Source: Oscillospiraceae bacterium
GTDB lineage: Bacteria; Bacillota; Clostridia; Oscillospirales; Acutalibacteraceae
Direction of reading: 5' to 3'
Assembly: GCA_015065785.1 (NCBI GenBank)
Contig: SVPR01000007.1
Span: forward strand, 35,634 to 99,633
Length of the DNA stretch: 64,000 nucleotides
The first letter of the stretch is position 1. Each line of letters begins with the position of its first letter. Made by a program: the position numbers and the translations under genes. The notes under the pieces were generated by a model. It had not been told where the DNA came from. It made no database searches and saw only the letters and a program-made list of their open reading frames with translations. Shown piece after piece: positions 9,641 to 54,852 of the stretch.

Positions 9641-12600
9641 TTATTTGCAGGTTATTCCTTTTGTATCATAATAGCTCATATAACTACCAGAAACTGCTCT
9701 TACTGTGTAAATATATTCAACCTTTTCATCGGCTGTGCTATCGGTATAATTTACATAATCATTACCTTTTACATTTTCAACTATTACCCAAGATGTATCA
9801 GCAGTTTTTCTGTAAATTCTGTATCCGTCCGCTCCCTTTATTTGTTGGTAAGTAATAACATTACCGTCAACCGTTTTAAATGCACTCATAAGCTGTGGAG
9901 TGCTGAGGAATTTCATAGAAGCTGACGCTGTGTAGCTTGAAAGTGAGCTTCCGCTTACAGTGCGGACTGTGTATCTGTAAGTAACGCCTGAAACAACACT
10001 TTTATCTACCCAAGCAGATTTGTTGTTCTTTGCAGTGCCCATAACTTTCCAGGAAGACCATTTTCCTGTTGCTTCGTTATATTCTGAACGATAAACTCTA
10101 TAACCCTTTGATTTTAAAGCCTGTGTCCATTTAACATTAATACCGTTAGCTACATTTGAAATTGTAACCTTAGGCTCTTTTAAATAAAGCACACTATTAG
10201 ATGCTTTATATGAGCTTTTACAGCTTCCGCAAACAGTTCTTACAGTGTAGCGATATGTTGTTCCGCTTTGTGCGCTTTTATCAATCCAGGCAGATTTACC
10301 CGCCGCTGCGGTACCCATTTTTTTCCATGAAGACCACTTTCTGTTAACTGAATCATAAGTAGAACGATAAACGGTGTAACCCGTTGCAGCTTTATTTGTT
10401 GACCATGTAACCTTTACACCCGTAGATGCATTCGCAATTTTTACTGTCGGAGTTGAAAGAATTGCACCTGACCAACCGGTTGTATTATAAGATGAAAGAA
10501 CGCTTCCCTTATAAGCTCTTATTGTATAAGTATATTTGATATTTGCTTTAACGCTTTTATCCATATAAGATGTAGTTTTTACGGTTGCAATTCTTGTCCA
10601 ACTGGTTGCGTTATTTGCTTTTCTGTAAAGCACATAGCCTGTTGCTCCGCTGACTTTATTCCAGCTTACTTTTATAGAATTTGCACTATTGAGTACAGAT
10701 GTCGCAGACGGTGTGCCAGGTGTAAACTGACGCTTCCAACCACTTGAATAATATGTTGATGTAGCACTGCTACCAACAGCCTTTAATGTATAAATATATG
10801 TTGTACCAAGCTTTACATTTTTATCCACAAACAATAAATTGGTAGTTGTTCCGATTCTCGACCAACCGGAATTACCTGTTTTTCTGTAAACATAATACTT
10901 TTCAGCACCATGAACATCTGCCCATTTAATTGTAATACCTTTACCAATCTGCGAATCAAATTTAGTTATTTTTGGTGCAGCTATAAAAGATATTTTATAG
11001 TTTTCATAGGCACTTCTGTAGCCCTCCGCTACCGCTCTGACAGTATAAAGATATGTTTTACCACTTTCAGCCTTTTTATCAGCATAGCTTGTTTTTGTAC
11101 CTGCAACTGTTGCTATTGTTTCCCATGTACCGTTTTCAAGTCTTCTGTAAACGAGATAATTTTCAGCACCTGTTACCTTAGACCATGAAACATTTACACC
11201 GTCAACAGTAATTGCTAATTTAACTGTTTTGACTTTTGATAAAAATACAACCGATTTTACTTCAGATAATGCACTCTCATAAGTACCATCAGTTGAAACC
11301 GACTTAATTGCATACTCATAAGTTACACCACTTGAAACTGCAGTATCTAAATATGTTGTTATATCTGAAGAGGTAGTTTTTAAAACTGACCAATCTGTCT
11401 GACCCTTAACTCTTTTGTAAATTACAAAATCACTTAAATCGTCCGTTATTTCCCAACTGAGAGAAATGCCTGTTGCCGTTAAGGTTGCACCCAATGCTGA
11501 CGGGATATTCACATAAGTTGCACTTTTTGTATTTTCTTCACCTATGTAGCTTTCTGTATTATTTTTAACAGCTGTAACAGTGTAATAATATTTCACACCG
11601 CTTTTAACATTAGTGTCTTTATAGCTCACTTCACTATTTTCAACAGTTGCTATTTTAATCCAGTTACCATCTGTGTGACGATAAATATTATAAGACTCAA
11701 CACCACTTACAGAATTCCACATTACTGTAACAGCATTCACTTCAGGAATTGCATTTGTCACAACAGGTGGCGCTATTCTGTAGAAGCTGTTGGTATATGG
11801 ATTACCGATACTGCCCCAGCCTCTGCTGTCAACTGCAGTTACCGAATATGAGTAGCTTGAGAAGTTCACGACAGAGCTATCAACAAATGAAGTGGTTTTT
11901 ACTTCTGCAATAACCTCTCCACTGCCCGAATCATTCACTATTCTTTTAACAATATAATATTCTGCATTTATTGAAGGCTCCCAGGAAACCTGCATGCCAT
12001 TCATAACATTCTGAACACTTATATTTTTGGGGGATCTGAGGAAATAAACCTCGTAGCCGATTGTACCCATCGGACTTTCTGATTTACCGATTGTTGCGAC
12101 TACGCCATACTCATAGTAACCGCCATCAACTGAAATATCTTTAAATGTTGTCACAGCATTACTTACTGTACCAACATTTTTCCAATCACTTTCGCCTCTT
12201 GCTTTTCTGTAAATTTTATAACCGGTTGCACCTTCTACCTCTTGCCAGTTAACAACAACTGAATCTGCCTGAGCTTCGAGTGAAGTAACCTGTGGTGCTC
12301 CAAGATATGCCAATGTTGCAGTTGTATTAAGGCTACTTACAGTAGAAGCGTTTACTGCTTTAACAGAATAAAAATATGTTGTTCCGTTTAAAACATTTAC
12401 ATCTGAAAAGCTTGTTTGTGTAGTTGTTTCAATCAGTTGCCATTCTTTACTGATATCAGTTTTACGATAAACCTCATATTTATCAGCACCAGTAACTAAA
12501 TTCCAGTTAAGCACAATGCCATTAGCAGTATTTTCAACCGCTGTAAACTCAGGTGCACTTAAAAAACTATGAGAAACATTGTTAGCACCAATTATTGAAA

Positions 12601-13639
12601 TTATATCACCATTTTCAACAGCTACTGCATATTTGTAGGTTTTGTTGCTTTCAACTGTTTCATCAACATAATAAAGTCTTTCAGACGCAGTTTTTTCTAA
12701 AAGCACCCACTTATTAGAAGGTGGATCCTGACGATAAACAGCATAGCTTTCTGCACCGCCGACTGCACCCCACATAATTCTGACAGTATCATTAACATTT
12801 GTAACTGATGTAATTTTTGCCGCCGTTAAATATAACTGTGTAGCACCTGCTGAGAAAAAGCCACTGTCACCGTAGCCGTTACCACATTTTACTGAATATG
12901 TGTAAGTAACACCACTATCAACCTTTGTATCAAGATATGAAGTGTAATCACTGGTAACCTCTGCTATTGTTTTCCACACGCCTTCATTATCTGCTTTTCT
13001 TATAACGGCATATTCCTCGGCACCTGCTACAGGCTCCCATCTGAACAAAATACCATTTTCCATAAGCTCAGCAGAAATCGGAGTAGGATTATCTAATGTA
13101 GAAAATTTTTCCTCTTTAATAAGCACTCTCTCGTCAGATGGTCTTATTTCGTTATTCTCATTATCATCTGATGAGTACTCTTTACAATAAAATCTTACAC
13201 TTGTCTGCGGTCTTAAATTCGTAACAACTCTGAATGTCAACATAAAGAAATCCTTGTATTCACTGTTGCCTGTTGAAACACCGTTGTTATTCATATAAGC
13301 AATTGAGTAAACGCTGTCACTTCCGCTTACAAAGCCATTTATGTATTCACCATAAACATTAAGTTTATTATTATCGTCTTCATCTTTAACATAAACTGGT
13401 GATGCAGATTTCAACTCTAAAATTGAAGTATCAAACTCAACATTTAAAATTGCACCGTTAAATTTTGTAATATTCGGCTTCAGATTTATAATAAATGAAA
13501 TCTCGCCGTTTTTCATACCTGTTGATTTAACATCAAAAAAGCTTGTTTGTGTGTCTGCTGCAAAAGCTGTAAAGGCATTTGCACCTATTACAGATATGCA
13601 CATAATAATACACAAAGCTGTAGCAATAAATTTTTTCAA
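9641..13639 (-). CDS. secreted cohesin-domain protein with 13 tandem Fn3-like modules
   Basis: TTG start with GGAGGAG RBS. Signal peptide MKKFIATALCIIMCISVIGANAFTAFA. N-terminal cohesin-like sandwich (ISFIINLKPNITKFNGAILNVEFDTSILELK ... FMLTFRVV). Then 13 modules with signature W-x-x-V-x-GA-x-x-Y-x-VYR ... W ... Y-x-D ... G-x-x-Y-x-Y-x-V-x-A (my manual count). Confidence 0.85.
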   Translation of the reverse strand: MKKFIATALCIIMCISVIGANAFTAFAADTQTSFFDVKSTGMKNGEISFIINLKPNITKFNGAILNVEFDTSILELKSASPVYVKDEDDNNKLNVYGEYINGFVSGSDSVYSIAYMNNNGVSTGNSEYKDFFMLTFRVVTNLRPQTSVRFYCKEYSSDDNENNEIRPSDERVLIKEEKFSTLDNPTPISAELMENGILFRWEPVAGAEEYAVIRKADNEGVWKTIAEVTSDYTSYLDTKVDSGVTYTYSVKCGNGYGDSGFFSAGATQLYLTAAKITSVTNVNDTVRIMWGAVGGAESYAVYRQDPPSNKWVLLEKTASERLYYVDETVESNKTYKYAVAVENGDIISIIGANNVSHSFLSAPEFTAVENTANGIVLNWNLVTGADKYEVYRKTDISKEWQLIETTTQTSFSDVNVLNGTTYFYSVKAVNASTVSSLNTTATLAYLGAPQVTSLEAQADSVVVNWQEVEGATGYKIYRKARGESDWKNVGTVSNAVTTFKDISVDGGYYEYGVVATIGKSESPMGTIGYEVYFLRSPKNISVQNVMNGMQVSWEPSINAEYYIVKRIVNDSGSGEVIAEVKTTSFVDSSVVNFSSYSYSVTAVDSRGWGSIGNPYTNSFYRIAPPVVTNAIPEVNAVTVMWNSVSGVESYNIYRHTDGNWIKIATVENSEVSYKDTNVKSGVKYYYTVTAVKNNTESYIGEENTKSATYVNIPSALGATLTATGISLSWEITDDLSDFVIYKRVKGQTDWSVLKTTSSDITTYLDTAVSSGVTYEYAIKSVSTDGTYESALSEVKSVVFLSKVKTVKLAITVDGVNVSWSKVTGAENYLVYRRLENGTWETIATVAGTKTSYADKKAESGKTYLYTVRAVAEGYRSAYENYKISFIAAPKITKFDSQIGKGITIKWADVHGAEKYYVYRKTGNSGWSRIGTTTNLLFVDKNVKLGTTYIYTLKAVGSSATSTYYSSGWKRQFTPGTPSATSVLNSANSIKVSWNKVSGATGYVLYRKANNATSWTRIATVKTTSYMDKSVKANIKYTYTIRAYKGSVLSSYNTTGWSGAILSTPTVKIANASTGVKVTWSTNKAATGYTVYRSTYDSVNRKWSSWKKMGTAAAGKSAWIDKSAQSGTTYRYTVRTVCGSCKSSYKASNSVLYLKEPKVTISNVANGINVKWTQALKSKGYRVYRSEYNEATGKWSSWKVMGTAKNNKSAWVDKSVVSGVTYRYTVRTVSGSSLSSYTASASMKFLSTPQLMSAFKTVDGNVITYQQIKGADGYRIYRKTADTSWVIVENVKGNDYVNYTDSTADEKVEYIYTVRAVSGSYMSYYDTKGITCK

Positions 13640-13707: not shown

Positions 13708-16395
13708 TCAATCAGCACAAGAAATACCATTTGTATCATAGTAGCTAACATTTTTACCGTTAACTGCTCTTACTGTGTAAATATATTGTGTACCATCAAT
13801 TATATTTTTATCAGTATAAACTGTGTTTTCTGCGCCACTTACGGTTTCAATCAAAGACCAGCCTGTATATAAGGTCTTTCTGTAAATTCTGTAGCTGTCT
13901 GCTTTTGAATTTGATTCGTAAGTCAAAATATTTCCCGATGTATCTGCTGTGCAGGATAACAATTGTGGCACCTTTAAAAACATTGTTTCACTTGAAGCTT
14001 TATAGGTTGACATAACCTTACCGCTAACTGTTTTCACAGTATATCTGTATATTACGCCGTCAACTGCACTCTTATCTGTCCAAGCAGATTTTGAAGCTGC
14101 CGCTGTACCCATAACCTTCCATGAACTCCACTTTTCTGTTTTTACATCAAATTGTGAACGATAAACTCTATATCCGGTTGCGCCGGTTGCTTTCGTCCAT
14201 TTTACACTAACACCATTAGCTACATTTGAAATTGTTACAGTTGGCTGTGCTAAATAAACGAGTGAAGCAGACGCCTTATATGAACCCTTGCAAAGACCGT
14301 TCACTGCTTTTACTGTATAACGATAAGTAGTGCCACTACTTACAGTCTTATCTACCCAGGCAGATTTTGAAGCTGCCGCTGTACCACGGTTTTTCCAAGA
14401 TGACCATTTGCCTGTACTTGCGTTGTACTGAGAACTGTAAACTGTATAACCGCCAGCACCGCTTACCTTTGACCATGTAACCTTAATACCGGTTTCATAA
14501 TTTGCTATTTTTACTGTTGGTGTTTTAAGAATTACACCAACCCAACCCTTAGTGTTGTATGATGAAAGGGTGCTACCCTTGTAAGCTCTTATTGTGTATG
14601 TGTAAACAGCACCTGTTTTCACATTTTTATCTGTATAAGCTGTGCTTGATGTTTTTGCAAGCAATGACCAGCTTGTTTCTCCCGGAGCTTTTCTGTAAAC
14701 ACGGTATCCATCAACACCCTTTACTGCGCCCCATTGAATTTTAATGCTTGAGCTACCAGGTGTAACAGCAGTAACCGAAGGTGTTGTAAGTGTATATTTC
14801 ACAGTCCAGCCTGTTTTATTGTATCCGGAAAGATTACTACCATTTTCTGCTTTTAAGGTGTAAATATATGATTTATTTAACGAAACATTTTTATCTGTAT
14901 AAGATGTAGCTGTTGTTCTGGTGAGTAATGACCAACTGCCACTTGCTGAAGTTTTTCTGTAAACGCGATATTGTGCTGCACCGGGAACCTTATCCCACTT
15001 AATTGTAATGCCTGTGCCAATTGTTGAGGTTGTTTTAGTCGCTTTTGGTGAAGCTAAATAGTTAAATGGATAAGATTTATAGGCACTCCATACACCGTTT
15101 GAATAAACCTTAACAGCATAGCTATTTGTTTTACCGCTTGTTGCACCTGTATCTACCAAGCTTAAAACATCAGCATTTACCGTCTTAAGAACCGTCCATG
15201 ATTGTTCACCAGTGACTTTTCTGTAAATTCGGTATTTTTCCGCACCGGAAACAGCCGACCACTTAACGCTTACGCCGTCATAAGCATTAGCTAATGTGAC
15301 ATTTGAAACCATAGCAACATATTGAATTTTTTTAACATCAGCATCAGCACTTACATAACTGTTCTTAATAACCTTTGCTGTATATTCATAAGCTTTACCG
15401 CTTGAAATAGTTTTATCAGTTATTGTAAGTACATCCTTACCTACCTGTTCAACTGCTTCCCAGCTTCCTCCTACAACGCGTCTGTAAATCTTGTAGGCAG
15501 TTGCACCCTCTACTCTGTCCCAGGCAATTTTCACACCGGAGGTAGAATTAGTTACAGTAATATTGGGCGGGTCCATATAACCGAACTCTTTACCCTCATA
15601 CCAGCCATAGCCATTTGCACTTTTAGCTCTGACAGCATAAGTATAAACTGTGTTGTTTTTAATATTTTCAGTATCGACATAAGATATATTCTTAACAGTA
15701 GCGATAGCTCTGTAAGTTGCATCCTCGCCACCCTTACGGTAAACAAGATATTCTGTTGCACCCGGAACAGAATCCCACTTAACAGTAATTGACTTTTTGC
15801 CTGCTGTAAATGAAGAAATTTTACCTGAATTAAGTGTTGAGAAACCGTTGCCGTTCTGACCGGCAAATTTCTTGATTGTATCAGTTGATGTATAATCGCC
15901 TGCAACGAACTCTACAATTGTGTTAGGATATGTTTTATCAATTACCTCAAATGTAATGTAAGCATACTCTTTACCTGAGTTACCTGTATTAAAGCCACTT
16001 GCGCTGATATATGCAAAGGTATAAGCAGAATCATCACCTATTGATACACCTTGTGTATGCATACCTGTAAGTACCTCAACAGGATTCCCGTCTGCATCAG
16101 TAGTTGTAGCCGGCCCTGCGTCAACTATCTTTAAAACTTTTTTATCATATTTCACAGTTACCAAAGCCCCTGTAACTGTTACTCCGCTTGAAACATTGAT
16201 TTTAAATGTTGCTCTGCCATTGTTAAAAATTGGTTGAGAGGCGTTAGAAACAGTACCGTCACTGATTACATAGTTTGAAGCATCAAGATATGAATCTGGT
16301 ACTGCTACGGCAGAAGCTGTGAGCATAAAGCTCATTAAAACAGAAACTACCATTAAAGCTGCAAGAGTTAATTTAAGGCCTTTTTTCATCTTCAT
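13708..16395 (-). CDS. secreted cohesin-domain protein with 8 tandem Fn3-like modules (tandem paralog of 9641-13639)
   Basis: Track ORF runs to 16425. The ATGs at 16395/16389 follow AAAGGA and begin the signal peptide MKMKKGLKLTLAALMVVSVLMSFMLTASA. Cohesin-like N-domain (ATFKINVSSGVTVTGALVTVKYDKKVLKIV ... AYITFEVI). The last five modules are collinear with the last five of the neighbour. Confidence 0.85.
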   Translation of the reverse strand: MKMKKGLKLTLAALMVVSVLMSFMLTASAVAVPDSYLDASNYVISDGTVSNASQPIFNNGRATFKINVSSGVTVTGALVTVKYDKKVLKIVDAGPATTTDADGNPVEVLTGMHTQGVSIGDDSAYTFAYISASGFNTGNSGKEYAYITFEVIDKTYPNTIVEFVAGDYTSTDTIKKFAGQNGNGFSTLNSGKISSFTAGKKSITVKWDSVPGATEYLVYRKGGEDATYRAIATVKNISYVDTENIKNNTVYTYAVRAKSANGYGWYEGKEFGYMDPPNITVTNSTSGVKIAWDRVEGATAYKIYRRVVGGSWEAVEQVGKDVLTITDKTISSGKAYEYTAKVIKNSYVSADADVKKIQYVAMVSNVTLANAYDGVSVKWSAVSGAEKYRIYRKVTGEQSWTVLKTVNADVLSLVDTGATSGKTNSYAVKVYSNGVWSAYKSYPFNYLASPKATKTTSTIGTGITIKWDKVPGAAQYRVYRKTSASGSWSLLTRTTATSYTDKNVSLNKSYIYTLKAENGSNLSGYNKTGWTVKYTLTTPSVTAVTPGSSSIKIQWGAVKGVDGYRVYRKAPGETSWSLLAKTSSTAYTDKNVKTGAVYTYTIRAYKGSTLSSYNTKGWVGVILKTPTVKIANYETGIKVTWSKVSGAGGYTVYSSQYNASTGKWSSWKNRGTAAASKSAWVDKTVSSGTTYRYTVKAVNGLCKGSYKASASLVYLAQPTVTISNVANGVSVKWTKATGATGYRVYRSQFDVKTEKWSSWKVMGTAAASKSAWTDKSAVDGVIYRYTVKTVSGKVMSTYKASSETMFLKVPQLLSCTADTSGNILTYESNSKADSYRIYRKTLYTGWSLIETVSGAENTVYTDKNIIDGTQYIYTVRAVNGKNVSYYDTNGISCAD

Positions 16396-16443
16396 TTTTC
16401 CTTTCTGAATTGCCATTGTTTTCAAATAAATTCATACATTGTA

Positions 16444-16472: not shown

Positions 16473-16526
16473 TGAAATTAAATAAAACATAGTGTTAAAA
16501 AAATGTAAATAAAAAGAGGGGCAGGT

Positions 16527-16763
16527 TGGGGCACCCTCCGTAAGGAAGGTGCCCCAGTTATATTCGCCTGACGGCGAGTTATATTGCTTCGCAGTTATAT
16601 GATGCTTATGCATCGTGATATTGCCTTTCGGACAGTTAAAATGCGAATATAATATCACGAAAGCCGATAGGCTTTCATATTACTTTGCTACTAGGCAAAA
16701 TATCACTGTGAGACCTGTCTCACAATATCACTTATTATTCTTGGTTTTTTATATAAAAACCAA
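16527..16763. repeat. array of ~10 dissimilar short hairpins joined by a constant heptamer (GTTATAT x3, GTGATAT, then ATATCAC x3 / ATATTAC)
   Basis: Plus-strand stems: 16527-16556 (12-bp), TCGCC/GGCGA 16564-16577, TGC/GCA 16585-16593, GATGC/GCATC 16601-16614, 16622-16634 (bulged), GAAAGCC/GGCTTTC 16659-16676, TTTGC/GCAAA 16684-16699, TGTGAGA/TCTCACA 16707-16724, TTGGTTTTT/AAAAACCAA 16741-16763. Heptamers at 16557, 16578, 16594, 16615 (forward) and 16652, 16677, 16700, 16725 (inverted). Confidence 0.8.
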
Positions 16764-16812
16764 GGGAGAGCTCTTCTTTACGAAGTGTCTCCTTTACTTT
16801 GCTCCTCAGATA

Positions 16813-17274
16813 TTAAACATGTAATCTGTGACGGACATAGAAAAGCAAGTCTTCTGCTTCCCGTTTAAATGCTCTTGTAGAAACCGAAATAACACAGCTT
16901 GCTGTACCGCCTGACAAAGAAACCTCTGTTCTTAAAGCGTCTGCTGCTCTTTTAGTGCTTCTGCCCTCACCGAAAACAAGACAAATTACATTTTTAAATC
17001 TTAATTCATTCTGGCGGATAAACACCTTCATTGCGGGTGCTATATTGCCAAATGTTTCATCTGTTGCAAGAATTACATTATCATATTCATTTAAGTCAAC
17101 ATCGTAACCTCTTAAACGAATTGATGAAGTCTTTTTTGTGCCAAAGTGATTTTTCAAAAAGGATTTTCTGGATAAATCCCTCAGCTCTAAAACATCAATA
17201 TCCTGAGATTCACTTCTGCTGCAAAGGTCTTTGACTTCATTGTCGTATGAAAAATGAACAAGTAATGTTTTCAA
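16813..17274 (-). CDS. flavodoxin-like-fold protein (uncharacterised)
   Basis: 153 aa, TTG start after GGGGGTG. Alternating beta-alpha pattern (MKTLLVHFS..., YDNVILATDETFGNIAP, VICLVFGEG), but no clear FMN-binding T/S-x-T-G-x-T loop. Confidence 0.4.
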   Translation of the reverse strand: MKTLLVHFSYDNEVKDLCSRSESQDIDVLELRDLSRKSFLKNHFGTKKTSSIRLRGYDVDLNEYDNVILATDETFGNIAPAMKVFIRQNELRFKNVICLVFGEGRSTKRAADALRTEVSLSGGTASCVISVSTRAFKREAEDLLFYVRHRLHV

Positions 17275-25067: not shown

Positions 25068-25124
25068 TCGTGTATGTATCGTCAAAAATCATTTCACTAT
25101 ATAAATAGTTTTAGGAGGTTAATT

Positions 25125-28100
25125 ATGAAGCGCTCTGTTTCAATTAGAGTTATCTCAATGCTTCTTGCTGTAATGGTTATCTTCGGCACCTTAGGAGTAG
25201 CTACCCTTGCAGCAGACAAAGAGTTCGGGGGAACTTATGGTTATATTGTACCTACCGACTCTAATCTTTCAGCACCAAAAACATCTTACACCTTTTATGG
25301 TAACTCTACCGTTCTTTACTTTATGCTTTTCAGTAATGGTAAAGAAAACTCTTTTTACACGGTAGAAATTTATTCAAGCTCTGACTACAACCCTGACAAT
25401 GTTGTGTCAAGCTTCACTTCCGAATATGGTGATAAGGGCACAGCGCCTCTTGCACTTACCTGGCCATTCAAATCAAACCCAAGTGGTACTTATTACGGAA
25501 GATGCTACACTTCAATTATTGATGGCGAAGACGAAACAATAGATACTTCTACAATTTATGAATTCACTATAAAGCTTAACCGTCTTGGTAAAGAAGAGGT
25601 TGCATTAACAAGCGTTGCAAACGGCAAAGCTGGTGTTGTGCTTAAATGGACAGGATTAAGCACAGCCACAAAATACAGAGTTTACAGAAAACTCAAAGGT
25701 GACACAAGCTGGACTGTTCTTAAAGATGTACCCGCCGGTACCACATCTTACACAGATGCAACCGCAAAAAGTGGTGTTCAATACACATACACAGTTAAGG
25801 CTTTTGATAAGCTTTACTCAAGTCTTTACAATAAAACAGGACTTACAACTATGTTCCTTTCAGCACCAAAGCTCACTCAACCAACAGCAAGTTCAGATAT
25901 TTACCCAGTGATAAAATGGTCACAGGTTGCAGGTTGTCAGGGTTACTACATTTACAGAAAGGGTGGCTCACTCAACGACTCAACCGATTGGAAGAGAATT
26001 GCCACTGTAAAAGGTGCTACAACCTTAAGCTATACAGATAAAACTGCTACAAGTGCTGACTGGCAATACGACTACACTGTGCGTGCATATAATGGCAGCT
26101 ACGGCAGTTCTTATGATGCAGCGGGTGTTAGTTACAATTGTGTTTCTGCTCCTGTTTTAAAATCCGCTTCGAGTGTTAATGGCGGTGTTAAGATTACCTG
26201 GTTAGATACAAACACTGCAACAAAGAAGTTTAACATCTACCGCAAAGCCCCCGGCGAAACATCATGGTCAAAAATAGGCACTTCAACAACCGCTTCTTTC
26301 ACAGATAAAAATGTTACTAATGGCACTACTTACACTTACACCGTAAAAACCGTTTCAAGTACAAATGTAAGCTCATACAACAAAACAGGTATTTCTACTC
26401 TTTACATTGAAACACCTGCGTTGAAAAAAATATCAATTGCAAATAATGGTGATACTACCGTAACCTGGGGCGCAGTTAAGGGTGCAAAAGGCTACTATGT
26501 TTATAAGAGTGTAAACGGCGGAAGCTGGACAAAAATTGCAACCATAAAAAATGCAAGCACTCTTTCTTATAAAGATACTACAGCAAAAAAATCAGGCGAA
26601 ACCTACACCTACACAGTTCGTGCATTTAACGGCTCATACGGAAGTTACTATGTAACAAGTGGTATTTCTGCTATGTACCTTTCTACACCTACTGTAACTG
26701 TAAAAAATGATTACACAGTTGAACAAGGTAGCACCGTAAAGGTTTCATGGAACTCTATCGCAGGTGCAAAGAGCTACAGGGTTTACAGAAAAACCTCCTC
26801 CGATAGCACTTGGACAATAATCGCAGATGATTACACAGATAAAGTTTACTACGATAAAACCGCAGAAAGCGGTGTTAACTATTACTACACTGTAAAAGCT
26901 AAAAATGCTTCTTATATGAGTGGTTACACTTCAAGTGCACTTATCACAGTGCTCGCTGCACCAATCCTTAATGATGCAATTGTAACTGATACTGGCGTTA
27001 AAATTTCATGGAGCGAAGTAGGAGGAGCAACTAGCTACATTGTATTCAGAAGAACACTTACAGGCGCTTGGGAAAACCTCGGCACCTCTTCAACTACAGA
27101 ATATGTTGATATAACAAACAACTCAACTACAACACCTTATATTTACACAGTTCGTGCAGTTTTAGGCGACTTAAAGAGTAACTATATGGTTAACGGCGTT
27201 AAAAACTATATAAATGTAGATACAACAGACATCATTTTTGAAAACAATGTTGAAGCAAATACTGCATTTGTTAACTTAACATGGACTGCCAGCGGTGCTG
27301 ACTCTTACGAAATCTACCGTTCAGACAATGGTTCTGCTCCTGTTCTTTTGGCAACAGTTTCTGCTACAGAGCAACAAAGCTTCATTGATGATGAAATAAT
27401 TCAGGGTACAACTCACATTTATACAGTTAAGCCAATTAAAGAAGGAAAGCTTTCAGTTACTCTCGATTCCGAATCAGTTAAATGGGACTTCCCACCTGTA
27501 CCTGTAATTAAAGTTCTTGCAGTTCCTGCTTATGCTAAGGTTGATTTAGCAGACAGAATTGAAATTTACTGGGAAGGCACAGAGGTTGCCGAAAGCTACG
27601 ATGTATATCGCAGAACTGCTGATTCTGATTGGGTATATTTAACCACAGTAGCAAAAGACAGCGAATACACTTACATTGATACTGACATCGAAACAGATGT
27701 AACTTATTATTACAGTGTTAAAGGTGTGGCTTCTGACCGTGACAGCCTTTTCGACAATGTAGGTACAGAAGCAATGCTCAATGGTCCTGTTGAAGAAATT
27801 CAGGATATGTTCGCTCAGCTTACAGATGACCCAAGTGAAAAAGGTAAAAAACAAGTTACCCTTGCCTGGGCACCAAACGAAAAAGCTTCGCTTTACAAAG
27901 TAATGCGTAAAGCTGGTCCTGATGGTGAATGGGAATTTATGGGACTCTTCCTTAGCTGTGATGTATTAGTATTTACTGATAATACAATTGAGCAAGGCAT
28001 TGAATACACTTACACAATTCACACCTATGCACCAGACAGACCAAGCATTAACAACCTCGTAGGTAAAAAGATTATCTGGACAGACGGTACTGAGGACACA

Positions 28101-28271
28101 ACAACTCCTGAAACTACTGTTCCTGACACAACTATTCCGGATACAACAGTTCCTGAAACCACTGTTCCTGAAGTAACAGTTCCCGACACTACAGTTCCTG
28201 AAACAACACTTCCAACAACAAAACCGGAAGATACAACCTATGATGGTAGCTTAGATATTCCGGATGCTTAA
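25125..28271 (+). CDS. secreted protein with 9 tandem Fn3-like modules and Thr/Pro-rich tail
   Basis: ATG 25125 after AGGAGG. Signal peptide MKRSVSIRVISMLLAVMVIFGTLGVATLAA. About 130-aa unknown N-domain, then 9 modules of the same family as 9641-16395. C-terminal (TTVPE/D)n. Confidence 0.85.
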   Translation: MKRSVSIRVISMLLAVMVIFGTLGVATLAADKEFGGTYGYIVPTDSNLSAPKTSYTFYGNSTVLYFMLFSNGKENSFYTVEIYSSSDYNPDNVVSSFTSEYGDKGTAPLALTWPFKSNPSGTYYGRCYTSIIDGEDETIDTSTIYEFTIKLNRLGKEEVALTSVANGKAGVVLKWTGLSTATKYRVYRKLKGDTSWTVLKDVPAGTTSYTDATAKSGVQYTYTVKAFDKLYSSLYNKTGLTTMFLSAPKLTQPTASSDIYPVIKWSQVAGCQGYYIYRKGGSLNDSTDWKRIATVKGATTLSYTDKTATSADWQYDYTVRAYNGSYGSSYDAAGVSYNCVSAPVLKSASSVNGGVKITWLDTNTATKKFNIYRKAPGETSWSKIGTSTTASFTDKNVTNGTTYTYTVKTVSSTNVSSYNKTGISTLYIETPALKKISIANNGDTTVTWGAVKGAKGYYVYKSVNGGSWTKIATIKNASTLSYKDTTAKKSGETYTYTVRAFNGSYGSYYVTSGISAMYLSTPTVTVKNDYTVEQGSTVKVSWNSIAGAKSYRVYRKTSSDSTWTIIADDYTDKVYYDKTAESGVNYYYTVKAKNASYMSGYTSSALITVLAAPILNDAIVTDTGVKISWSEVGGATSYIVFRRTLTGAWENLGTSSTTEYVDITNNSTTTPYIYTVRAVLGDLKSNYMVNGVKNYINVDTTDIIFENNVEANTAFVNLTWTASGADSYEIYRSDNGSAPVLLATVSATEQQSFIDDEIIQGTTHIYTVKPIKEGKLSVTLDSESVKWDFPPVPVIKVLAVPAYAKVDLADRIEIYWEGTEVAESYDVYRRTADSDWVYLTTVAKDSEYTYIDTDIETDVTYYYSVKGVASDRDSLFDNVGTEAMLNGPVEEIQDMFAQLTDDPSEKGKKQVTLAWAPNEKASLYKVMRKAGPDGEWEFMGLFLSCDVLVFTDNTIEQGIEYTYTIHTYAPDRPSINNLVGKKIIWTDGTEDTTTPETTVPDTTIPDTTVPETTVPEVTVPDTTVPETTLPTTKPEDTTYDGSLDIPDA
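28099..28218 (+). repeat. 15-nt in-frame tandem repeat (about 8 units) encoding T-T-V/I-P-E/D
   Basis: Units read directly: acaacaactcctgaa / actactgttcctgac / acaactattccggat / acaacagttcctgaa ... Confidence 0.8.
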
Positions 28272-36790: not shown

Positions 36791-39700
36791 TTAATTTGCA
36801 TTTGTTGTGCCGGGTTCTGTTGTCGGTTCAGTTGTCGGTGGAGTTGTCGGCTCTGTTGTCGGTGGAGTTGTCGGCTCTGTTGTCGGTGGAGTTGTCGGCT
36901 CAGTTGCTGGTGGAGTCGTCGGCTCTGTTGTTGGTGGGGTTGTCGGCTCTGTTGTTGGTGGGGTTGTTACTTCACCCTTACTGCTTTCAATAACTAAACC
37001 TTCACTTGCAACATAAGCACTTCTGACACTACCGTTTACTGTGCGGACTGTATAGCGATAAGTAACATCCTCTTTTACGCTTTTGTCAATCCAGGCAGAT
37101 TTTGTTTCTTTCGCTGTTCCCATAACTGTCCATGATGACCACTTGCCATCTTTGCCTAAAGTAGCTCTGTAAACTGTATAACCTTTTGATCCGGCAGCTT
37201 TAGTCCAGGAAACCTTTATTCCTGTCTGGACAGCTTCAAGAGAAACTGTCGGTGTAGCAAGATATAAGAGCTCACTACTTGCAGTATAAAGACTTCTGCT
37301 TTCACCATTCACTGCACGAACAGTATATTTATACTTAACATTGCTTACAGCCTTTTCATCTACATAAGATGTAGTTGTTACTGATTTTAATGTAGTCCAG
37401 CCTGACCACTTGCCAGATTTATATTCAGCACGATATACCGTGTATTTTGTTGCACCGCTGATCTTATTCCAGCTTACATTTACACCTTTAGCTGCATTTG
37501 CAATTTTCACAGTAGGAATACTGAGGAATACATTTGTATTAGAAGCAACATAGCTACTCTTATATTTACCGCTTATTGCTCTGACTGTATATCTATAGGT
37601 GCCACCGGATTTAACTGTTTTATCAGTAAATGTTTTTGCAGTTGCTTTTGCAGTACCAAGATTCACCCATTTTGACCACTTGCCATCTTTCAATTCAGAA
37701 CGATAAATTGTGTAACCTTGTGCACCATCAACTTGATTCCAGCTACCAGAAATTCCATTTGCAGCATTGGTTACCTTTAAAGTAGGTTGTGCAAGATAAA
37801 TAAGAGTATTTGAAGCCTTATAGGTACTTCTTACAGAACCACTTACTGCACGAAGAGTATATCTGTATTGGCTACCTGATTTAACTGTTTTATCAGTAAA
37901 TGACTTTGCAGTAGCCTTAGTAGTGCCAAGGTTTAACCAGCTTGACCACTTACCATTCTTATATTCAGAACGGTAAATTGTGTAGCCTGTTGCACCATCA
38001 ATAGCATTCCATGTACCTGTAATGCCTGCTGCAGCATTTGAAATTGTCAAGGTTGGCTGTTCAAGAAAAATCATTCCTGCAGAAGCAGTATATCCACTTC
38101 TTTCCTTGCCAACAACTGCACGAATTGTATATCTGTATGTTCCACCACATTTTGTTTTATCATCTAACCATGAATTCTTTGCAGACTCAGTAGTGCCAAG
38201 AATAATCCAGCTTGACCACTTACCATCCTTTAATTCAGCTCGATAAACAGTGTAACTGTCAGCATTCGCTATTTTGTTCCACTTGATTAAAAGTCCTGTT
38301 GTAGAAATTGTCAAAGTAACCTTTGGTGACTCAATAAATGTTAAGCCAGCACTTTCTTTATAAGAACTTCTGAAATCACCGTTTACTGCACGAACTGTAT
38401 ATCTATATTTAACACCGGTTTTTGTAGTTTTATCTACCCAGGAAGATGCAGTTTCTTTTGCTGTGCCACGAACTTTCCAAGCAGACCATTTTTTTGTTTT
38501 AGTGTTATATTCAGAAGAATAAACTGTGTAACCTTTAGCATCTTCGTCCTTAGTCCAGCTCACTTTAATGCCGTTTGAAGCATTTTCGATTGTAACCTTT
38601 GGTGTATCAAGTGTGAGCTTTTCAATAATTGCCTTTTCGAGCTCCGCTTTACATACAGTACATTCTTTATGTTGTGAGCCTGTTTCTGTAAATGTTGCTT
38701 TCTTATCTGTAATCCACTCACTCTTTGTATGACCTGTTGCCTTTAATACTTCACCTGTTTCAATTGTTTTCTTACAATCAGAACAATATAAATCACCTGA
38801 ATAGCCCTCTTCTGTACAAGTCGGGGCTTTAGCGTTTACTGTTTCAGTGTTTTTGTGATTATCAGCGTCAATCGGAACTACAGTAACCTCTGTTTTTCCA
38901 ACACAATCAGGATTTACACACGGCTTATATTCAGAGCCCTCTGCAATACATGTTGCTTCGTCAATTGTAAATTCGGTAGCCCATGTGTGAGTTTTACCGT
39001 CCGGTTGAACCTCTTCAGTTTCTTTGTAATCGCAATCACCGTTCTGACAGAACTTTGCAATTTCACCTTTTACAGTACACTTTACTGGAACTGTAATTTC
39101 CCAACCGCCTAAATTATGAGAAACACCGTCCGCTTTAATTACTTCTGTTACTGAATGTGTGCAACCATCATTAAGACATTTTTGTACTTTTTCGCCATCG
39201 GTAACACAAGTTGCAGGAGTTACAATTTCCCAATCAGCGCTCATATTGTGGGCATCCTTGTCAATAGGAAGCACTTCTTCTACTTTGTAGTCACAGCCGT
39301 TCAAGCAAGTTGCAACTTTTTTACCCTCTGCAACACAGGTAGCAGGAATAACACTCCATCCACCTAAATTATGCGCATTTTCATCAACAGGAATTGAATC
39401 TGTTTGTGTCTGACCGCAACCATTTGCACATTCTTTAGTTTTTACGCCCTCTGCATTACAAGTCGCAGGAGTTGTTACAACCCAATCATTGGACCAGTCG
39501 TGAGTTTTACCATCTGCTTTAAGAGTATCAGTTACCTTGTATTCGCAACCATTATTCTGGCAATATCTTACCAAAACACCATCTTTTATGCAGTTTTGTG
39601 CTTCTAAAACCTCAAAACCGCCTAATGTATGAGCATTTTCGTCAATTTCAGTTTCTCTTGTAATCACTTCTTCACAAAGAGTACATTCACCTGATTCTAC

Positions 39701-41818: not shown

Positions 41819-41866
41819 CAAAACACTTCCTTTTTATTTATTTTATAGCAATAATTATACATTATA

Positions 41867-49986: not shown

Positions 49987-50036
49987 CACTTTTTTCCACA
50001 ATTATTTATATTTTTGTCAAAATGCACTTAGAGTTT

Positions 50037-50091
50037 CGCATATTTATGCAACATTTTATGTATAATATTCATTTTCGTTGAATATTCATTA
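50037..50091. promoter_or_regulatory. additional upstream ARG-box-like sites
   Basis: CGCATATTTATGCA (50037-50050), TATAATATTCATTT (50061-50074), TTGAATATTCATTA (50078-50091). Compared from memory with TGAAT-wwww-ATTCA. Confidence 0.45.
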
Positions 50092-50342
50092 TTTTTTCAT
50101 TTTCTCCCATTTTTTCCGAAATAGAACTTTTTTCAAATTCCGCACAGTTTTCACGGGATTTACTATTGATTTTTTTGGTTAAATATGTTAAATTATTGTT
50201 ATTAAGTATATAACTTTTGTGTAGTTTTCATGCACTTAGTTTATTAAACAACAATTGGTTGTCCGAAGCTTATTTCCGGTCATAAATTTTACTCTTATAG
50301 TATTGTTCAATTCTTATCACCAAATTATTGGAGGTACTTTCT

Positions 50343-52427: not shown

Positions 52428-52473
52428 TAAACCTAAACTAAGGTATCCACCTTAATAATAGGAGATTTTTAAA

Positions 52474-52839
52474 ATGAATGAAAACATTTTAATTGTAGAT
52501 GATGCAGAATTTTCAAGAGGTGTTATGAAACAGGCGTTACTTAATGCCGGTTTTGATAATATCGTTGAAGCTACAACTGCTGATGAAGCACGAAAAATTT
52601 TAGCAACACAACAAATTGATTTAACAATTCTTGATATAATGCTTCCTGATAGTAATGACTTAAAGCTTCTTCACGAGCTTTTAGCCATTAAAAAGGATGC
52701 AAGAATTGTTGTTATTTCAGCAATAAACAAGCCCGAAATAACACGCGAGGCTCTTTTAACAGGTGCTCGTGGATTTATAACAAAACCATTCAACGAAACA
52801 GACTTTTTATGTAAAGTAAGAATGGCTTTAGAAGATTAA
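52474..52839 (+). CDS. single-domain CheY-like response regulator
   Basis: 121 aa. ILIVDDAEF, DLTILDIMLPD, ITKP motifs. Confidence 0.85.
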   Translation: MNENILIVDDAEFSRGVMKQALLNAGFDNIVEATTADEARKILATQQIDLTILDIMLPDSNDLKLLHELLAIKKDARIVVISAINKPEITREALLTGARGFITKPFNETDFLCKVRMALED

Positions 52840-52847
52840 AGCAAACA

Positions 52848-52893
52848 TTTTAGGGAACAAAACAAGTTTAAAAAACTTGTTTTGTTCCCTAAA
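52848..52893. terminator. bidirectional intrinsic terminator
   Basis: TTTAGGGAACAAAACAAGTT-taaa-AAACTTGTTTTGTTCCCTAAA followed by TTTTTT. Overlaps the spoVAC stop. Confidence 0.85.
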
Positions 52894-53326
52894 TTTTTTC
52901 TATTACCCAATAAATCAACCCATAAAGACTGGCGGCACCACAGCCGTAAACTATTACAGGACCTGCTAAATTGAACATTTTGGCACCTGTCCCTAAAATG
53001 TGGCCCTCTGCTTTAAATTCAAGTGCAGGCGACACAACTGAATTTGCAAAGCCTGTTATTGGCACAAATGTCCCAGCACCTGCAACCTTTGCAATATTGT
53101 CAAAAACGCCTACTATAGTTAATATGGCGGTTATTGCTATAAGTGTTACAGATACAAGGGTTTTCGCCTCAGTTATAGTCATAGATGTCATTAAATAAAG
53201 TGTGCGTAAAGCCTGACCTAAACAGCTTATTCCACCACCGAATAAAAATGCATTTATCAAATCTTTTTTCAAAGGGGATTTTGGCGTTATTTTTTCTACT
53301 AATTTACTATATTGATAATCTCTCAT
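52889..53326 (-). CDS. spoVAC: stage V sporulation protein AC-like membrane protein
   Basis: 145 aa. YSKLVEKITPKSPLKKDLINAFLFGGGISCLGQ N-terminus and four hydrophobic segments typical of SpoVAC/SpoVAEB. Confidence 0.7.
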   Translation of the reverse strand: MRDYQYSKLVEKITPKSPLKKDLINAFLFGGGISCLGQALRTLYLMTSMTITEAKTLVSVTLIAITAILTIVGVFDNIAKVAGAGTFVPITGFANSVVSPALEFKAEGHILGTGAKMFNLAGPVIVYGCGAASLYGLIYWVIEKI

Positions 53327-53357
53327 AAACTCACCAACTTTAGTTTATGTAAAATTT

Positions 53358-53399
53358 ATGAGCATATTCAAATTTTTAAATAAATTTGAATATGCTCAT
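53358..53399 (-). terminator. intrinsic terminator after the YabE-like gene
   Basis: ATGAGCATATTCAAATTT-ttaaata-AAATTTGAATATGCTCAT. Confidence 0.7.
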
Positions 53400-53403
53400 T
53401 TTG

Positions 53404-54660: not shown

Positions 54661-54824
54661 GGTATAAATACTCCTTAAACTAGCAATTCCCATAAATATT
54701 GTTTTTGCAGGAATTACCGTTAATAGATATTCTTGTTCACAATTAGAAGCTGAGGCGTCAATCTCAACTTAAAACTATAAGCAAAAACATCCGTTTTTCT
54801 TCCGTTTATCCTATGGCAAGGTGT

Positions 54825-54852
54825 ATTATACCCAATTTTTTGGTATTGTCAA
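54825..54852 (-). promoter_or_regulatory. consensus sigma-A promoter of the YabE-like gene
   Basis: Minus strand TTGACA (54847-54852), 16-nt spacer, TATAAT (54825-54830). Implies a 5' UTR of about 155 nt. Confidence 0.65.

Follow-up and report, generated by a model that had tools for sequence, protein, structure and literature searches.

A row of small hairpins in the window (the whole 64-kb stretch of DNA that was analysed) is, judged by its sequence, a complete copy of a Gut-1-family element that extends over about 16526-16799, with its core at 16527-16731. Gut-1 (Rfam RF01706) was catalogued in 2010 as a candidate RNA from the gut microbiome (Weinberg et al. 2010, Genome Biol 11:R31, PMC2864571), and was graded 'Y' for RNA in that work on the basis of covariation (PMC2864571). 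Since then it has been an orphan 'sRNA' in Rfam, seen in gut metagenomes only and without an organism, a context or a partner, and our literature search found no paper besides the 2010 description that mentions Gut-1 or RF01706. The present copy and its relatives supply the family with hosts, a full architecture and a genomic habit (behind a tRNA or tmRNA terminator, or in a terminator loop), as well as with evidence that it has moved recently, loop signatures that are strand-specific and point toward folded DNA, and a candidate partner, PF05635. We consider the chances roughly even that Gut-1 is a non-coding DNA repeat, dispersed and recently mobile in gut Clostridia of the Oscillospirales type, and not a stand-alone small-RNA gene, with folded single strands and with heptamers that serve as protein-binding sites.

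The Gut-1 copy in the window

A sequence-only reading of the window had described an array of mini-hairpins joined by a constant heptamer, and the core (16527-16731) reads as it was written there. Four forward heptamers on the + strand (GTTATAT at 16557, 16578 and 16594, GTGATAT at 16615) are followed, as had been claimed, by four inverted ones (ATATCAC at 16652, 16700 and 16725, ATATTAC at 16677), and a fifth, degenerate forward heptamer, GTTAAAA, lies at 16635. Also borne out were the unit spacing of 16-25 bp, the difference between all stems (TCGCC, TGC, GATGC, TGCC/GGACA, GAAAGCC, TTTGC, TGTGAGA), the identity of hpB (TGCTTCGCA) as the reverse complement of GCGAAGC, and the C.A on the + strand of the first, 12-bp stem that is a G.U on the - strand. 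All inter-heptamer spacers are perfect hairpins from end to end, and they are mutually unrelated. The extent given earlier was too short on the right: two further hairpins (16740-16764 and 16765-16792) belong to the insert, and the inserted unit reaches ~16799. From left to right, the features are as follows.

16505..16525, - strand: 3' arm (CCTGCCCCTC) and T-run of the old terminator of the flavodoxin-like gene, from the empty-site comparison
16527..16556, no strand assigned: end hairpin hp0, TGGGGCACCCTCC-GTAA-GGAAGGTGCCCCA, a 12-bp palindrome with TG...CA limits that abuts L1
16557..16621, + strand: left arm, heptamers L1-L4 (GTTATAT three times, GTGATAT), Rfam Gut-1 match
16564-16577, 16585-16593 and 16601-16614, + strand: left-arm hairpins hpA, hpB and hpC, coordinates checked
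16622..16651, + strand: centre, with hpD (TGCCTTTCGGACA), the degenerate GTTAAAA and the closure GCGAATATA(A)
16652..16731, + strand: right arm, heptamers R1-R4 (ATATCAC, ATATTAC, ATATCAC, ATATCAC), sub-threshold Rfam match
16659-16676, 16684-16699 and 16707-16724, + strand: right-arm hairpins hpE, hpF and hpG, which are longer, coordinates checked
16732..16799, - strand: right flank within the insert, with TTATTATT, an A/T hairpin (16740-16764) and an hp0-like hairpin (16765-16792)
16800..16812, - strand: 5' arm region (TATCTGAGGAGCA) of the old terminator, the same in filled and empty sites

The closure is complementary to L1 and the 5' arm of hpA, such that 16558-16567 pairs with 16643-16652. 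On the - strand, the stop codon of the flavodoxin-like gene (16813-16815) directly precedes the TATCTGAGGAGCA region, and the element now splits the 3' arm of this gene's terminator from its 5' arm. The hp0-like hairpin at 16765-16792 reads GGAGACACTTC-GTAAA-GAAGAGCTCTCC on the - strand and runs into CTTGGTTTTT, with which it probably forms a replacement terminator for the flavodoxin-like gene. Terminator-like character was confined to the flanking hairpins, that is, to the site called at 16536..16519 (- strand) and to 16792..16765 (- strand) plus CTTGGTTTTT; the internal hairpins did not qualify as intrinsic terminators, since a heptamer and not a T-run follows them and the scanner matches rest on ATATT of the linker. 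A design shared with the 'composite terminators' in other parts of the window, as had been proposed, was not upheld: the window holds no other such array.

The left arm matched the full RF01706 model (1-77) at 16555-16626 on the + strand with 53.6 bits, where the curated gathering cut-off is 50 bits, while the right arm gave a sub-threshold match on the - strand (16647-16733, 31.4 bits, E = 3e-4). The earlier remark that no described element of this form was known to its author is thus superseded, because the left half is the Gut-1 motif, RF01706 (PMC2864571). Like the Rfam entry, with its three variable hairpins on GUGAWAU linkers, the left arm that scored above the cut-off shows the Gut-1 hallmark: hpA-hpC are joined by GTTATAT/GTGATAT, and the Rfam seeds use GUGAUAU and GUUAUAU too. 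Homology to the seeds extends beyond the model, since an hp0 of the GGCGCACUCC-GNAA-GGAAGUGCGCC type and the centre GCGAAUAUAAUAUCAC are common to BAAZ01000095, BAAZ01000085 and BAAZ01000322, and the same hp0, centre and inverted arm occur in the seeds BAAZ01000095, BAAZ01025322 and BAAV01002358. The inverted half is already visible in the unannotated flanks of Rfam seed members. The Rfam model, however, covers one arm on one strand only and is labelled as an sRNA. Neither the model nor the 2010 text includes the full unit (hp0, closing stem and inverted arm), the location next to tRNA genes, the polymorphism in presence or absence, the reversal of loop type between strands or the link to PF05635.

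The reading as palindromes that cluster by chance in intergenic, AT-rich DNA has nothing in its favour except the local AT-richness (34% G+C), and we regard it as refuted, with a probability close to nil. GTDATAT occurred 56 times in the 64 kb as compared to 30 +/- 6 expected, and eight of these occurrences fall within 175 nt at the array. Folded as single-stranded DNA, 16510-16805 reached -59.3 kcal/mol (+) and -61.0 kcal/mol (-). The sequence-only reading had allowed that shuffling might yield as many hairpins; the 200 shuffles that were run gave -27 +/- 3.7 (z = -8.7 for + and -9.0 for -), and 0/200 were as good. The Rfam score over the cut-off and hundreds of homologues with covariation likewise oppose chance. 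A generic scan of the whole window for any 7-mer present at least three times with hairpin spacers returned nothing beyond these two arrays.

Family architecture and strand logic

Copies were collected with a search pattern in which a double-heptamer centre lies between a heptamer and an inverted one. This revealed the full layout in at least 120 genome stretches of gut Clostridia and in viral contigs; the hosts are Oscillospirales-type Clostridia of humans and ruminants. A looser pattern (three heptamers, 19 specified bases) was swamped by chance matches when applied to viral contigs, and among the matches listed L147 alone was useful. The family unit, which is twice the size of the Rfam model, runs from the long end hairpin hp0 through four heptamers with hairpins and a closing stem to four inverted heptamers with hairpins. 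Four L heptamers were present in 88/115 parsed copies and four R heptamers in 95/115, and the flip of heptamer orientation at the centre, first noted in the window, is a family-wide feature. No autonomous form with an ORF between the arms was found, and 'solo' arrays proved to be copies with mutated heptamers.

As had been suggested from the single copy, it is the hairpin structure and not the stem sequence that is kept, while the linker heptamer is the conserved part of the family. Among 87 unique elements there were 43-73 sequences per hairpin position with 86-97% Watson-Crick pairing, and arms taken from their own element paired at 0.86-0.97 as compared to 0.31-0.57 when swapped between elements. 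The long-range closure pairing was 95% Watson-Crick over 18 sequence variants in the 87 elements. Deviations from the heptamer consensus were compensated in only 4/133 cases, which means that the linkers are not kept for mutual pairing. For this reason, and because L1 is a fixed mismatching variant, we rejected a ladder model in which forward and inverted linkers pair into stacked four-way junctions or a giant imperfect cruciform. Heptamer spacing across the family was 16-26 bp and unphased.

The loops follow the heptamers. On the + strand the left arm carries C[TNC]G and C[TNNC]G loops and the right arm C[GNA]G and C[GNNA]G loops, so that c[GNA]g and c[GNNA]g sit on the outward strand of each arm (that leading away from the centre), and the loop type flips with the heptamer. 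The wobble bias fits this outward-strand assignment (28 vs 16), and 34 cases of a tandem GA/AG mismatch were counted on the + strand of hpE. Triloops made up 59% of the loops, and only about 58% of the GNNA tetraloops were GNRA. GNRA loops and G.U pairs would fit RNA equally well. The d(GNA) triloops with a closing C-G pair are very stable (PMC3201870).

The GC-type hp0 of the window is homologous to that of copies L310, L313, L318, L301 and L330 and of the Rfam seeds, and the hp0 of tRNA-linked copies is an A6-hairpin-T6 bidirectional terminator. Placed at the left end, such a terminator would be in keeping with transcription toward the left.

Insertion sites, neighbours and the PF05635 link

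At the window locus, ~274 nt are inserted in the loop of the terminator of the upstream, flavodoxin-like gene. A near-identical strain has, at its empty site, the sequence TATCTGAGGAGCAGG-GTAG-CCTGCTCC-C-TTTTTATTT; a strain with 100% identical flanks is without the element, and empty sites were also seen in relatives at 82-98% protein identity. An exact-protein look-up of a neighbouring gene returned only identical strains, with no variation. The native terminator arms (GAGGAGCA / CCTGC.CC) flank the insert, as they do in seed BAAZ01000095, and the right flank (16732..16799) is missing from the empty sites. Conservation in close relatives, on which the earlier reading had placed weight, is thus lacking at this locus but present at many others where the element is kept. 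For example, L330 is an 88% identical copy at an unrelated site (its homology stops at 16748), the MAG RGIG4012 has five copies, and tandem and duplicated copies have hp0 in common.

The insert ends (16526 / 16799) showed no clear terminal inverted repeat or target-site duplication, though the arms are inverted. A possible GGAG at both insert junctions is too short to count. Since the right terminator arm differs between the filled and the empty site, the element may have been acquired by recombination instead of transposition.

The element nests in, or directly after, intrinsic terminators. A tRNA or tmRNA gene was located upstream on the same strand in 62/106 copies (58%), at 114-252 nt from the centre and, for 52 of the 62, at 114-153 nt; none of the 106 copies had one on the opposite strand, and none had one downstream. 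Linked copies lie directly after the terminator of the last tRNA/tmRNA gene of the cluster, and it is invariably the left arm that is closer to the tRNA; 16 isotypes and a tmRNA are represented. An integrase, prophage or island boundary as the cause of this adjacency was rejected, because clustering of the 1189 neighbouring ORFs brought out housekeeping genes and no enrichment for integrases or phage. In the plasmid collection there was no match to the Gut-1 element, and the curated phage records gave one match, an unverified faecal contig that is itself a tRNA / Gut-1 / IVP locus. We also rejected the idea that the element generally includes an outward promoter: a sigma70-like match was found within the next 75 nt in 17/96 copies, a rate that equals that of the opposite strand, and 11 of the 17 matches begin 0-8 nt past R4.

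The only recurrent neighbour was a PF05635 gene, which follows 13 of ~127 copies at fixed spacing and on a fixed strand. PF05635 is the very large family of four-helix-bundle, 23S-rRNA intervening-sequence proteins (hence 'IVP'), which resemble Avd of diversity-generating retroelements; we know of no catalytic or sequence-specific DNA-binding activity of these proteins. In the linked copies the IVP gene starts 40-50 nt past R4, and all 15 of 15 IVP loci picked by protein sequence carried the element. IVPs behind GTGATAT arrays are 84% identical mutually and 54-61% identical to those behind GTGAAAT arrays (59-100% identical among themselves), a co-variation of heptamer family and IVP clade that rests on two GTGATAT cases only. 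About 90% of copies, that of the window included, have no IVP gene nearby, and tblastn of the 64-kb window returned no PF05635-like ORF.

These observations suggest how the element could work. Each arm would act as a folded single-stranded nucleic acid, read as 5'-ATWTCAC-hairpin on the outward strand (- for the left arm, + for the right arm), and single-stranded or extruded DNA is likelier than RNA because the loops are those of extra-stable DNA mini-hairpins. With the hairpins looped out, the 7-nt linkers would form a series of four to five identical predicted sites for a sequence-specific factor, for which the PF05635 four-helix-bundle protein appears the best candidate. IVP-linked copies may then be 'master' or autoregulated copies, and solo copies, such as that of the window, non-autonomous targets or relics of IVP; putative roles of the bound complex are mobility, insulation of transcription units, or regulation. 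A more specific version is speculative and, in our judgement, unlikely, namely that Gut-1 arrays and the PF05635 gene form a two-part system, previously unrecognised. Here, an oligomeric IVP would bind the heptamers displayed by folded-out hairpins in single-stranded or supercoiled DNA, the IVP clade would co-evolve with the type of heptamer, and the complex would drive or guide insertion at hairpin-forming DNA (tRNA/tmRNA 3' ends and terminator loops), with IVP-linked copies autonomous and solo copies non-autonomous. If true, this would be the first function for PF05635 proteins outside diversity-generating retroelements, and it would move an orphan Rfam 'RNA' to a class of DNA elements.

Competing readings and known systems

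We find it possible, yet rather doubtful, that Gut-1 acts as one small non-coding RNA or as two RNAs, one per arm, whose heptamers, single-stranded between the hairpins, sequester or recruit an RNA-binding protein. Avd acts with RNA and reverse transcriptase in diversity-generating retroelements, and since it does so, this protein could be the Avd-like IVP. The covariation behind the 'Y' rating of 2010 was confirmed here, GNRA loops are common, a terminator follows many copies at no more than 100 nt on the right, and hp0 of the tRNA-linked copies could stop transcription that runs leftward through the left arm. The loop grammar, however, flips between the arms. One arm would therefore have the disfavoured UNC/UNNC loops if there were one transcript only, or if the left arm were read on the Rfam strand. 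For two RNAs that run outward, promoters would have to lie within ~30 nt of the variable centre, where only weak 9-of-12 matches and no conserved promoter were found. DNA hairpins fit better with the prevalence of triloops and with non-GNRA GNNA loops nearly as frequent as GNRA, and the array of the window lies within the loop of a terminator, with a new terminator-like hairpin upstream of it. A position exactly after tRNA/tmRNA terminators and ahead of downstream promoters speaks for a portable transcription boundary or insulator, in which the terminator hairpin and the arrays block read-through both ways between strongly expressed tRNA operons and their neighbours. The block could be a bound roadblock protein, or the G-less, YC-containing linkers could form a hairpin-interrupted Rho loading site. 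The bidirectional hp0 terminator, the terminator-like hairpin that the insert itself supplies to the flavodoxin-like gene, the G-less outward strand of the heptamer (ATWTCAC) and the contiguous G-less heptads (TCTTCAC-like) after some tRNA terminators without the element all fit such a role. We nevertheless judge it distinctly unlikely: near-identical strains dispense with the element, ordinary tRNA terminators of the same genomes do without it, and the role has no need of hairpins with DNA-type loops.

If the element were simply a double-stranded array for protein binding (iterons, a centromere or an operator), the palindromic spacers would be incidental. The viral contig L377 has the same heptamer, six forward and then five inverted, without hairpins, and the element on phage contig L147 adjoins four 11-bp iterons, with a primase-helicase gene ~6 kb off. 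ATTTCAC equals the box-A heptamer of P1 ParB, and WATCACW the omega heptad of pSM19035. Against these similarities stand spacers with strong compensatory variation and strand-specific loop selection, a spacing that is not phased, and the lack of partition or replication genes near the copies in genomes and of a plasmid match, which make this reading very improbable.

The folded-DNA repeat that we favour resembles REP/BIME and REPIN-RAYT sequences, which are also short intergenic hairpin repeats in alternating orientation, multi-copy and placed after operons, are presumed to work or move in the form of single-stranded DNA, and in a minority flank a dedicated protein gene. In contrast, REP conserves the sequence of the palindrome, while Gut-1 conserves the 7-nt linker and its hairpins all differ (the 43-73 sequences per position). 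Within +/-5 kb of the 127 copies we found no Y1/HUH (RAYT) gene, and the 1189 clustered ORFs comprised no recurrent family in a transposase-like context; the leading clusters were inspected by sequence, and a Pfam scan was made of the IVP cluster only (PF05635). The 23S rRNA IVS with an S23p/PF05635 ORF (Coxiella burnetii, PMC4990558) is likewise a selfish insert in a helix loop that involves the same protein family. The IVS, however, sits in rRNA helices, encloses its ORF by inverted ends and has no heptamer/hairpin array, whereas the Gut-1 ORF, if any, lies outside the array, the window insert occupies a terminator-hairpin loop and has no PF05635 ORF, and it is the 'master' copies that precede a PF05635 gene. 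Bacterial MITEs such as the Neisseria Correia elements share with Gut-1 the non-coding nature, a size of ~200-300 bp, inverted symmetry, multiple copies and presence/absence, and sometimes bring outward promoters or terminators. Gut-1 differs from them in the eight heptamer/hairpin units, and no terminal inverted repeats or target duplication could be defined for it.

Short C-G-closed stems, GNA/GNNA loops and a structure that is kept where sequence is not are features in common with the DNA mini-hairpins d(GCGAAGC)/d(cGNAg). Integron attC sites and the phage N4 virion-RNAP promoters are hairpin DNA signals used as single strands. There is a precedent for such hairpins of 5-7 bp forming in vivo, but these systems are single sites with defined enzymes, whereas Gut-1 consists of 4+4 arrays whose 7-nt linker is constant and for which no enzyme is known. 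Identical units that follow different upstream sequences might be chimeras created by assembly at the repeat, and the repeat accounts for contig breaks in the assemblies of these gut bacteria.

Identity and layout of the array

The array spans 16527-16731 of the window, where the sequence bears out the earlier description of hairpins joined by a heptamer that flips at the centre. The sequence-only reading knew of no described element of this form, but Rfam RF01706 (Gut-1) matches 16555-16626 on the plus strand with 53.6 bits, above the cut-off of 50 bits, and the right arm gives a weak match on the minus strand (31.4 bits). Judged by its sequence, the element is thus a member of the known Gut-1 family. 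The 43 Gut-1 sequences of Weinberg et al. 2010 came from human gut metagenomes only, and the motif was graded a probable non-coding RNA without further comment (PMC2864571); in the literature after that description no mention of it was found. The unannotated flanks of the RF01706 seed alignment already hold the remainder of the unit: in seed member BAAZ01000095 they comprise an hp0 homologue, the centre GCGAAUAUAAUAUCAC, four hairpins linked by AUAUCAC and, outermost, an inverted repeat, and seed member BAAV01002358 has the same layout with GUGAAAU/AUUUCAC.

The array and its surroundings in the window
From 16527, left end of the array: hp0, TGGGGCACCCTCC-GTAA-GGAAGGTGCCCCA
Left arm, forward heptamers L1-L4: L1 GTTATAT, hpA, L2 GTTATAT, hpB, L3 GTTATAT, hpC, L4 GTGATAT, hpD
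Between L2 and L3: hpB, TGCTTCGCA
Centre, after hpD: degenerate GTTAAAA, then GCGAATATA
Right arm, inverted heptamers R1-R4: R1 ATATCAC, hpE, R2 ATATTAC, hpF, R3 ATATCAC, hpG, R4 ATATCAC
16740-16764: A/T hairpin, part of the insert
16765-16792: hp0-like hairpin, part of the insert, on the minus strand followed by CTTGGTTTTT
16813-17274, minus strand: FMN_red-like gene (weak match), 153 aa
16472..16444, minus strand: promoter-like TTGACT-17-TATATT of the surface protein gene (905 aa, fn3/GH85_C)

All spacers are end-to-end hairpins with a different stem sequence in each, and the array is flanked by the stop codon of the FMN_red-like gene and the promoter-like site of the surface protein gene. 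GTDATAT occurs 56 times in the window versus 30 ± 6 expected, with 8 occurrences inside 175 nt. Folded as single-stranded DNA, 16510-16805 reaches -59.3 and -61.0 kcal/mol on the two strands, compared with -27 ± 3.7 for shuffles (z = -8.7 and -9.0), which places the hairpin content beyond chance. A scan of the 64 kb for any 7-mer present at least three times with hairpin spacers returned the element's two arrays only; the composite terminators elsewhere in the window, to which the array had been likened, are therefore not the same thing.

The gene content is that of an ordinary chromosome (hydrogenase genes, an arginine-biosynthesis operon, MetRS, TatD). Four large surface-type paralogues with GH85_C / fn3-like repeats are present (9641-13639, 13708-16425, 25074-28271 and 36791-41821), and the element lies upstream of the second only. 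Cumulative GC skew declines steadily from position 1 to ~55 kb and climbs thereafter; where it turns (~50000-56000) gene orientation changes from minus to plus strand, and G+C dips to 32% at 50-52 kb. This region, in which no dnaA was seen, could be a replication-related switch point.

Insertion into a terminator loop

At the syntenic loci of relatives (82-89% protein identity) just 107-165 nt separate the two genes, and in a 98%-identical relative whose flanks are 100% identical the sequence is stop-TATCTGAGGAGCAGG-GTAG-CCTGCTCC-C-TTTTTATTT, one terminator and no element. In the window, the terminator arms (16800-16812 and 16505-16525) are held apart by ~274 nt (16526-16799), which puts the element in the terminator loop, as in BAAZ01000095. 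The surface-protein promoter is left untouched, and the hp0-like hairpin with CTTGGTTTTT can, from its sequence, act as a replacement terminator. Another MAG (L330) has, at an unrelated site, a copy of 16526-16748 with 88% identity. On these comparisons the window copy is a recent insert. Since neither a clean target duplication nor a terminal repeat could be made out at its ends, and the 3' terminator arm differs slightly between filled and empty sites, acquisition may have been by either transposition or recombination.

At the same locus in relatives of 88% and 75% identity (L393:1510-1801 and L388:3463-3842), the two genes are separated by unrelated 290-380-nt filler with its own hairpins and terminators. 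The intergenic site between the flavodoxin-like and surface-protein genes seems to be a repeated landing place.

The family across genomes and its neighbours

Species-representative genomes were scanned with a pattern that joins a forward and an inverted heptamer across a double-heptamer centre, giving matches in at least 120 stretches. Among the matches listed, from which the copy counts of this section are taken, hosts are almost all gut Clostridia MAGs from humans and ruminants (Acutalibacteraceae, Ruminococcus, Oscillospiraceae, Faecousia, Christensenellaceae), one MAG has as many as five copies, and several are located at the ends of contigs. The pattern also fits 17 viral-labelled contigs, most of which hold the element. 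Four L heptamers are found in 88 and four R heptamers in 95 of 115 parsed copies. The heptamer is invariant inside one element and varies between elements (further families: GTGATGT, GCTAAAT, TCATAAC). The palindromic hp0 abuts L1 and has (T)G...CA as its bounds.

A tRNA or tmRNA ends 114-252 nt upstream of the centre in 62 of the 106 copies with enough upstream sequence (114-153 nt in 52 of the 62), always on the same strand, with none on the opposite strand or downstream; 16 isotypes and a tmRNA are represented. The junction reads ...CCA-(T)GAAAAAA-stem-loop-stem-TTTTTTCA-L1, and here hp0 is also a bidirectional terminator; in the same genomes, tRNA operons that lack the element end in ordinary A-run/T-run terminators. 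One contig carries two copies with identical hp0, only one of them behind a tRNA, which shows that hp0 moves together with the element.

The protein genes nearby are housekeeping genes of many kinds, and integrase, phage or Rep genes are not enriched among them. The sole recurrent neighbour encodes a 113-119-aa PF05635 protein (IVP; 96 bits on Pfam PF05635; PDB 2rld, E = 7e-26), of the four-helix-bundle '23S rRNA intervening sequence protein' family. Its gene follows the element on the same strand in 13 of ~127 copies, starting 121-142 nt past the centre (40-50 nt past R4), and is sometimes frameshifted or truncated. Reciprocally, a complete element lies directly upstream at 15 of 15 places encoding three such IVPs, picked by protein sequence and covering at least six different upstream contexts. 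Units 99.6-100% identical stand behind differing upstream DNA, identity beginning at CCA|G, and may be assembly chimeras. A GenBank faecal 'phage' contig has the order promoter, tRNA-Arg, hp0, GTGATAT-type array, IVP gene. The two IVPs that follow GTGATAT arrays share 84% identity and are 54-61% identical to those behind GTGAAAT arrays, which share 59-100% among themselves; these few cases hint that heptamer type and IVP co-vary. PF05635 resembles the DGR protein Avd (PMC10053308). Outside these loci its ORFs are known from selfish intervening sequences lodged in helix loops of 23S rRNA (PMC4990558), a setting suggestively similar to that of Gut-1 in a terminator loop. A search of the 64-kb window found no IVP gene.

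Several further arrangements were seen. At sites without an intact tRNA (L366, L368, L370, L372, the second copy of L269, L381, L395, L408), a tRNA-3'-end-like fragment lies just left of hp0 (...GGGGGAGCCA, ...ATTAGCCA, ...GGTCGAATCCCGCCCTTTCCGCCA), and L366-L372 carry a truncated reading frame of an IS256-like transposase after R4. In L320, L341 and L357, tRNA terminators that lack the element are followed, in the first ~45 nt, by contiguous G-less heptads (e.g. ACTATTCACTATTCTCTCTTCACTCTTCACTAAAA) ending in CAC-TAAAA, like R4; these may serve for Rho loading or be related to the right arm but without its hairpins. In L279, L267, L272, L328, L339, L345, L302 and others, the stretch 0-60 nt after R4 contains a conserved promoter-leader module (TTGC.C...17 nt...TATAMT...GAAAGGCGGTG..ATG) that begins 0-8 nt from R4. 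It stands before differing genes, that of IVP included, as if the expression signal were kept fixed while the downstream gene changes.

The viral-labelled contigs L374 and L380 have identical tRNA, flanks and right arm but completely different left arms, hpA-hpD and closing stem being swapped as one block, which suggests that the left arm, with the closing stem as its boundary, is a unit of exchange. In L377:4140-4260 (IMGVR_UViG_3300010354_015816) a plain array of six AGTGATATA then five TATATCAC, with 4-6-nt spacers and no hairpins, has the heptamer and forward-then-inverted order of the window element and resembles an iteron or centromere site. The GC-rich L147:4990-5235 (IMGVR_UViG_3300031867_000663) holds a complete Gut-1 unit (plus strand 61.9 bits, minus strand 30.5) without hp0 or tRNA, directly followed by four tandem GGTAACTTGCC repeats; the unit lies 70 nt upstream of a terminase-large-subunit-like gene, and a PriCT_2/AAA_25 primase-helicase gene is ~6 kb off. 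Matches outside Clostridia, in a Terriglobales MAG (L248, a well-formed GTGATAT-type element after tRNA-Gly) and a Syntrophobacteraceae MAG (L364), reflect either horizontal spread or bin contamination.

Hairpin structure and its possible readings

Structure statistics were taken from 87 unique complete elements among the matches listed, using the outer 5 bp of each hairpin. Watson-Crick pairing was 86-97% for a hairpin's own arms versus 31-57% with arms swapped between elements, at 43-73 distinct sequences per position, so the proposal that structure rather than stem sequence is maintained holds across the family. The closing stem, in which the 11 nt before R1 are complementary to L1 and the 5' arm of hpA, is paired at 95% with 18 sequence variants. 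Pairing between forward and inverted linkers was rejected as a maintained feature (4 of 133 deviations compensated; L1 a fixed variant).

Loop statistics reverse from left to right arm. On the plus strand, left-arm loops are C[TNC]G (TTC 100, TGC 27, TAC 21, TCC 7) and C[TNNC]G, while right-arm loops are C[GNA]G (GAA 49, GCA 21, GTA 10, GGA 7) and C[GNNA]G (GTAA 19, GCAA 13, GTTA 10, GATA 7, GACA 7, GTCA 7, GAAA 6). The favoured unit is therefore 5'-ATWTCAC plus a C-G-closed hairpin with a G...A loop, on the minus strand in the left arm and the plus strand in the right, in each case running outward from the centre. G.T versus A.C mismatches (28 versus 16) agree weakly with this assignment, and in hpE a tandem GA/AG mismatch is conserved on the plus strand (34 times). 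The GNRA share of GNNA loops is ~58%, which is no enrichment. The d(cGNNAg) tetraloops are the DNA class analogous to c[GNA]g. The latter is the classic extra-stable DNA mini-hairpin and needs a C-G closing pair (PMC3201870). We infer that what folds in the arms is DNA, single-stranded or extruded, and not one RNA.

The reading we favour, at about even confidence, is a mobile DNA repeat whose arms, folded as single strands, would present a row of identical heptamers to be read by a factor acting in trans, for which IVP is the most plausible candidate. Genuine sRNAs, one or several, in line with the original grading, are a possible but clearly less probable source of the same hairpins, whose favoured strands are opposite in the two arms. 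Termination by hp0 would suit a portable bidirectional transcription boundary, which we think unlikely; a plain duplex binding array, set beside the maintained pairing of the spacers, is more doubtful still. Chance, after the shuffle test, is negligible.

Hairpins are consistently longer in the right arm (15-19 nt) than in the left (9-15 nt), and triloops make up 59% of all loops.
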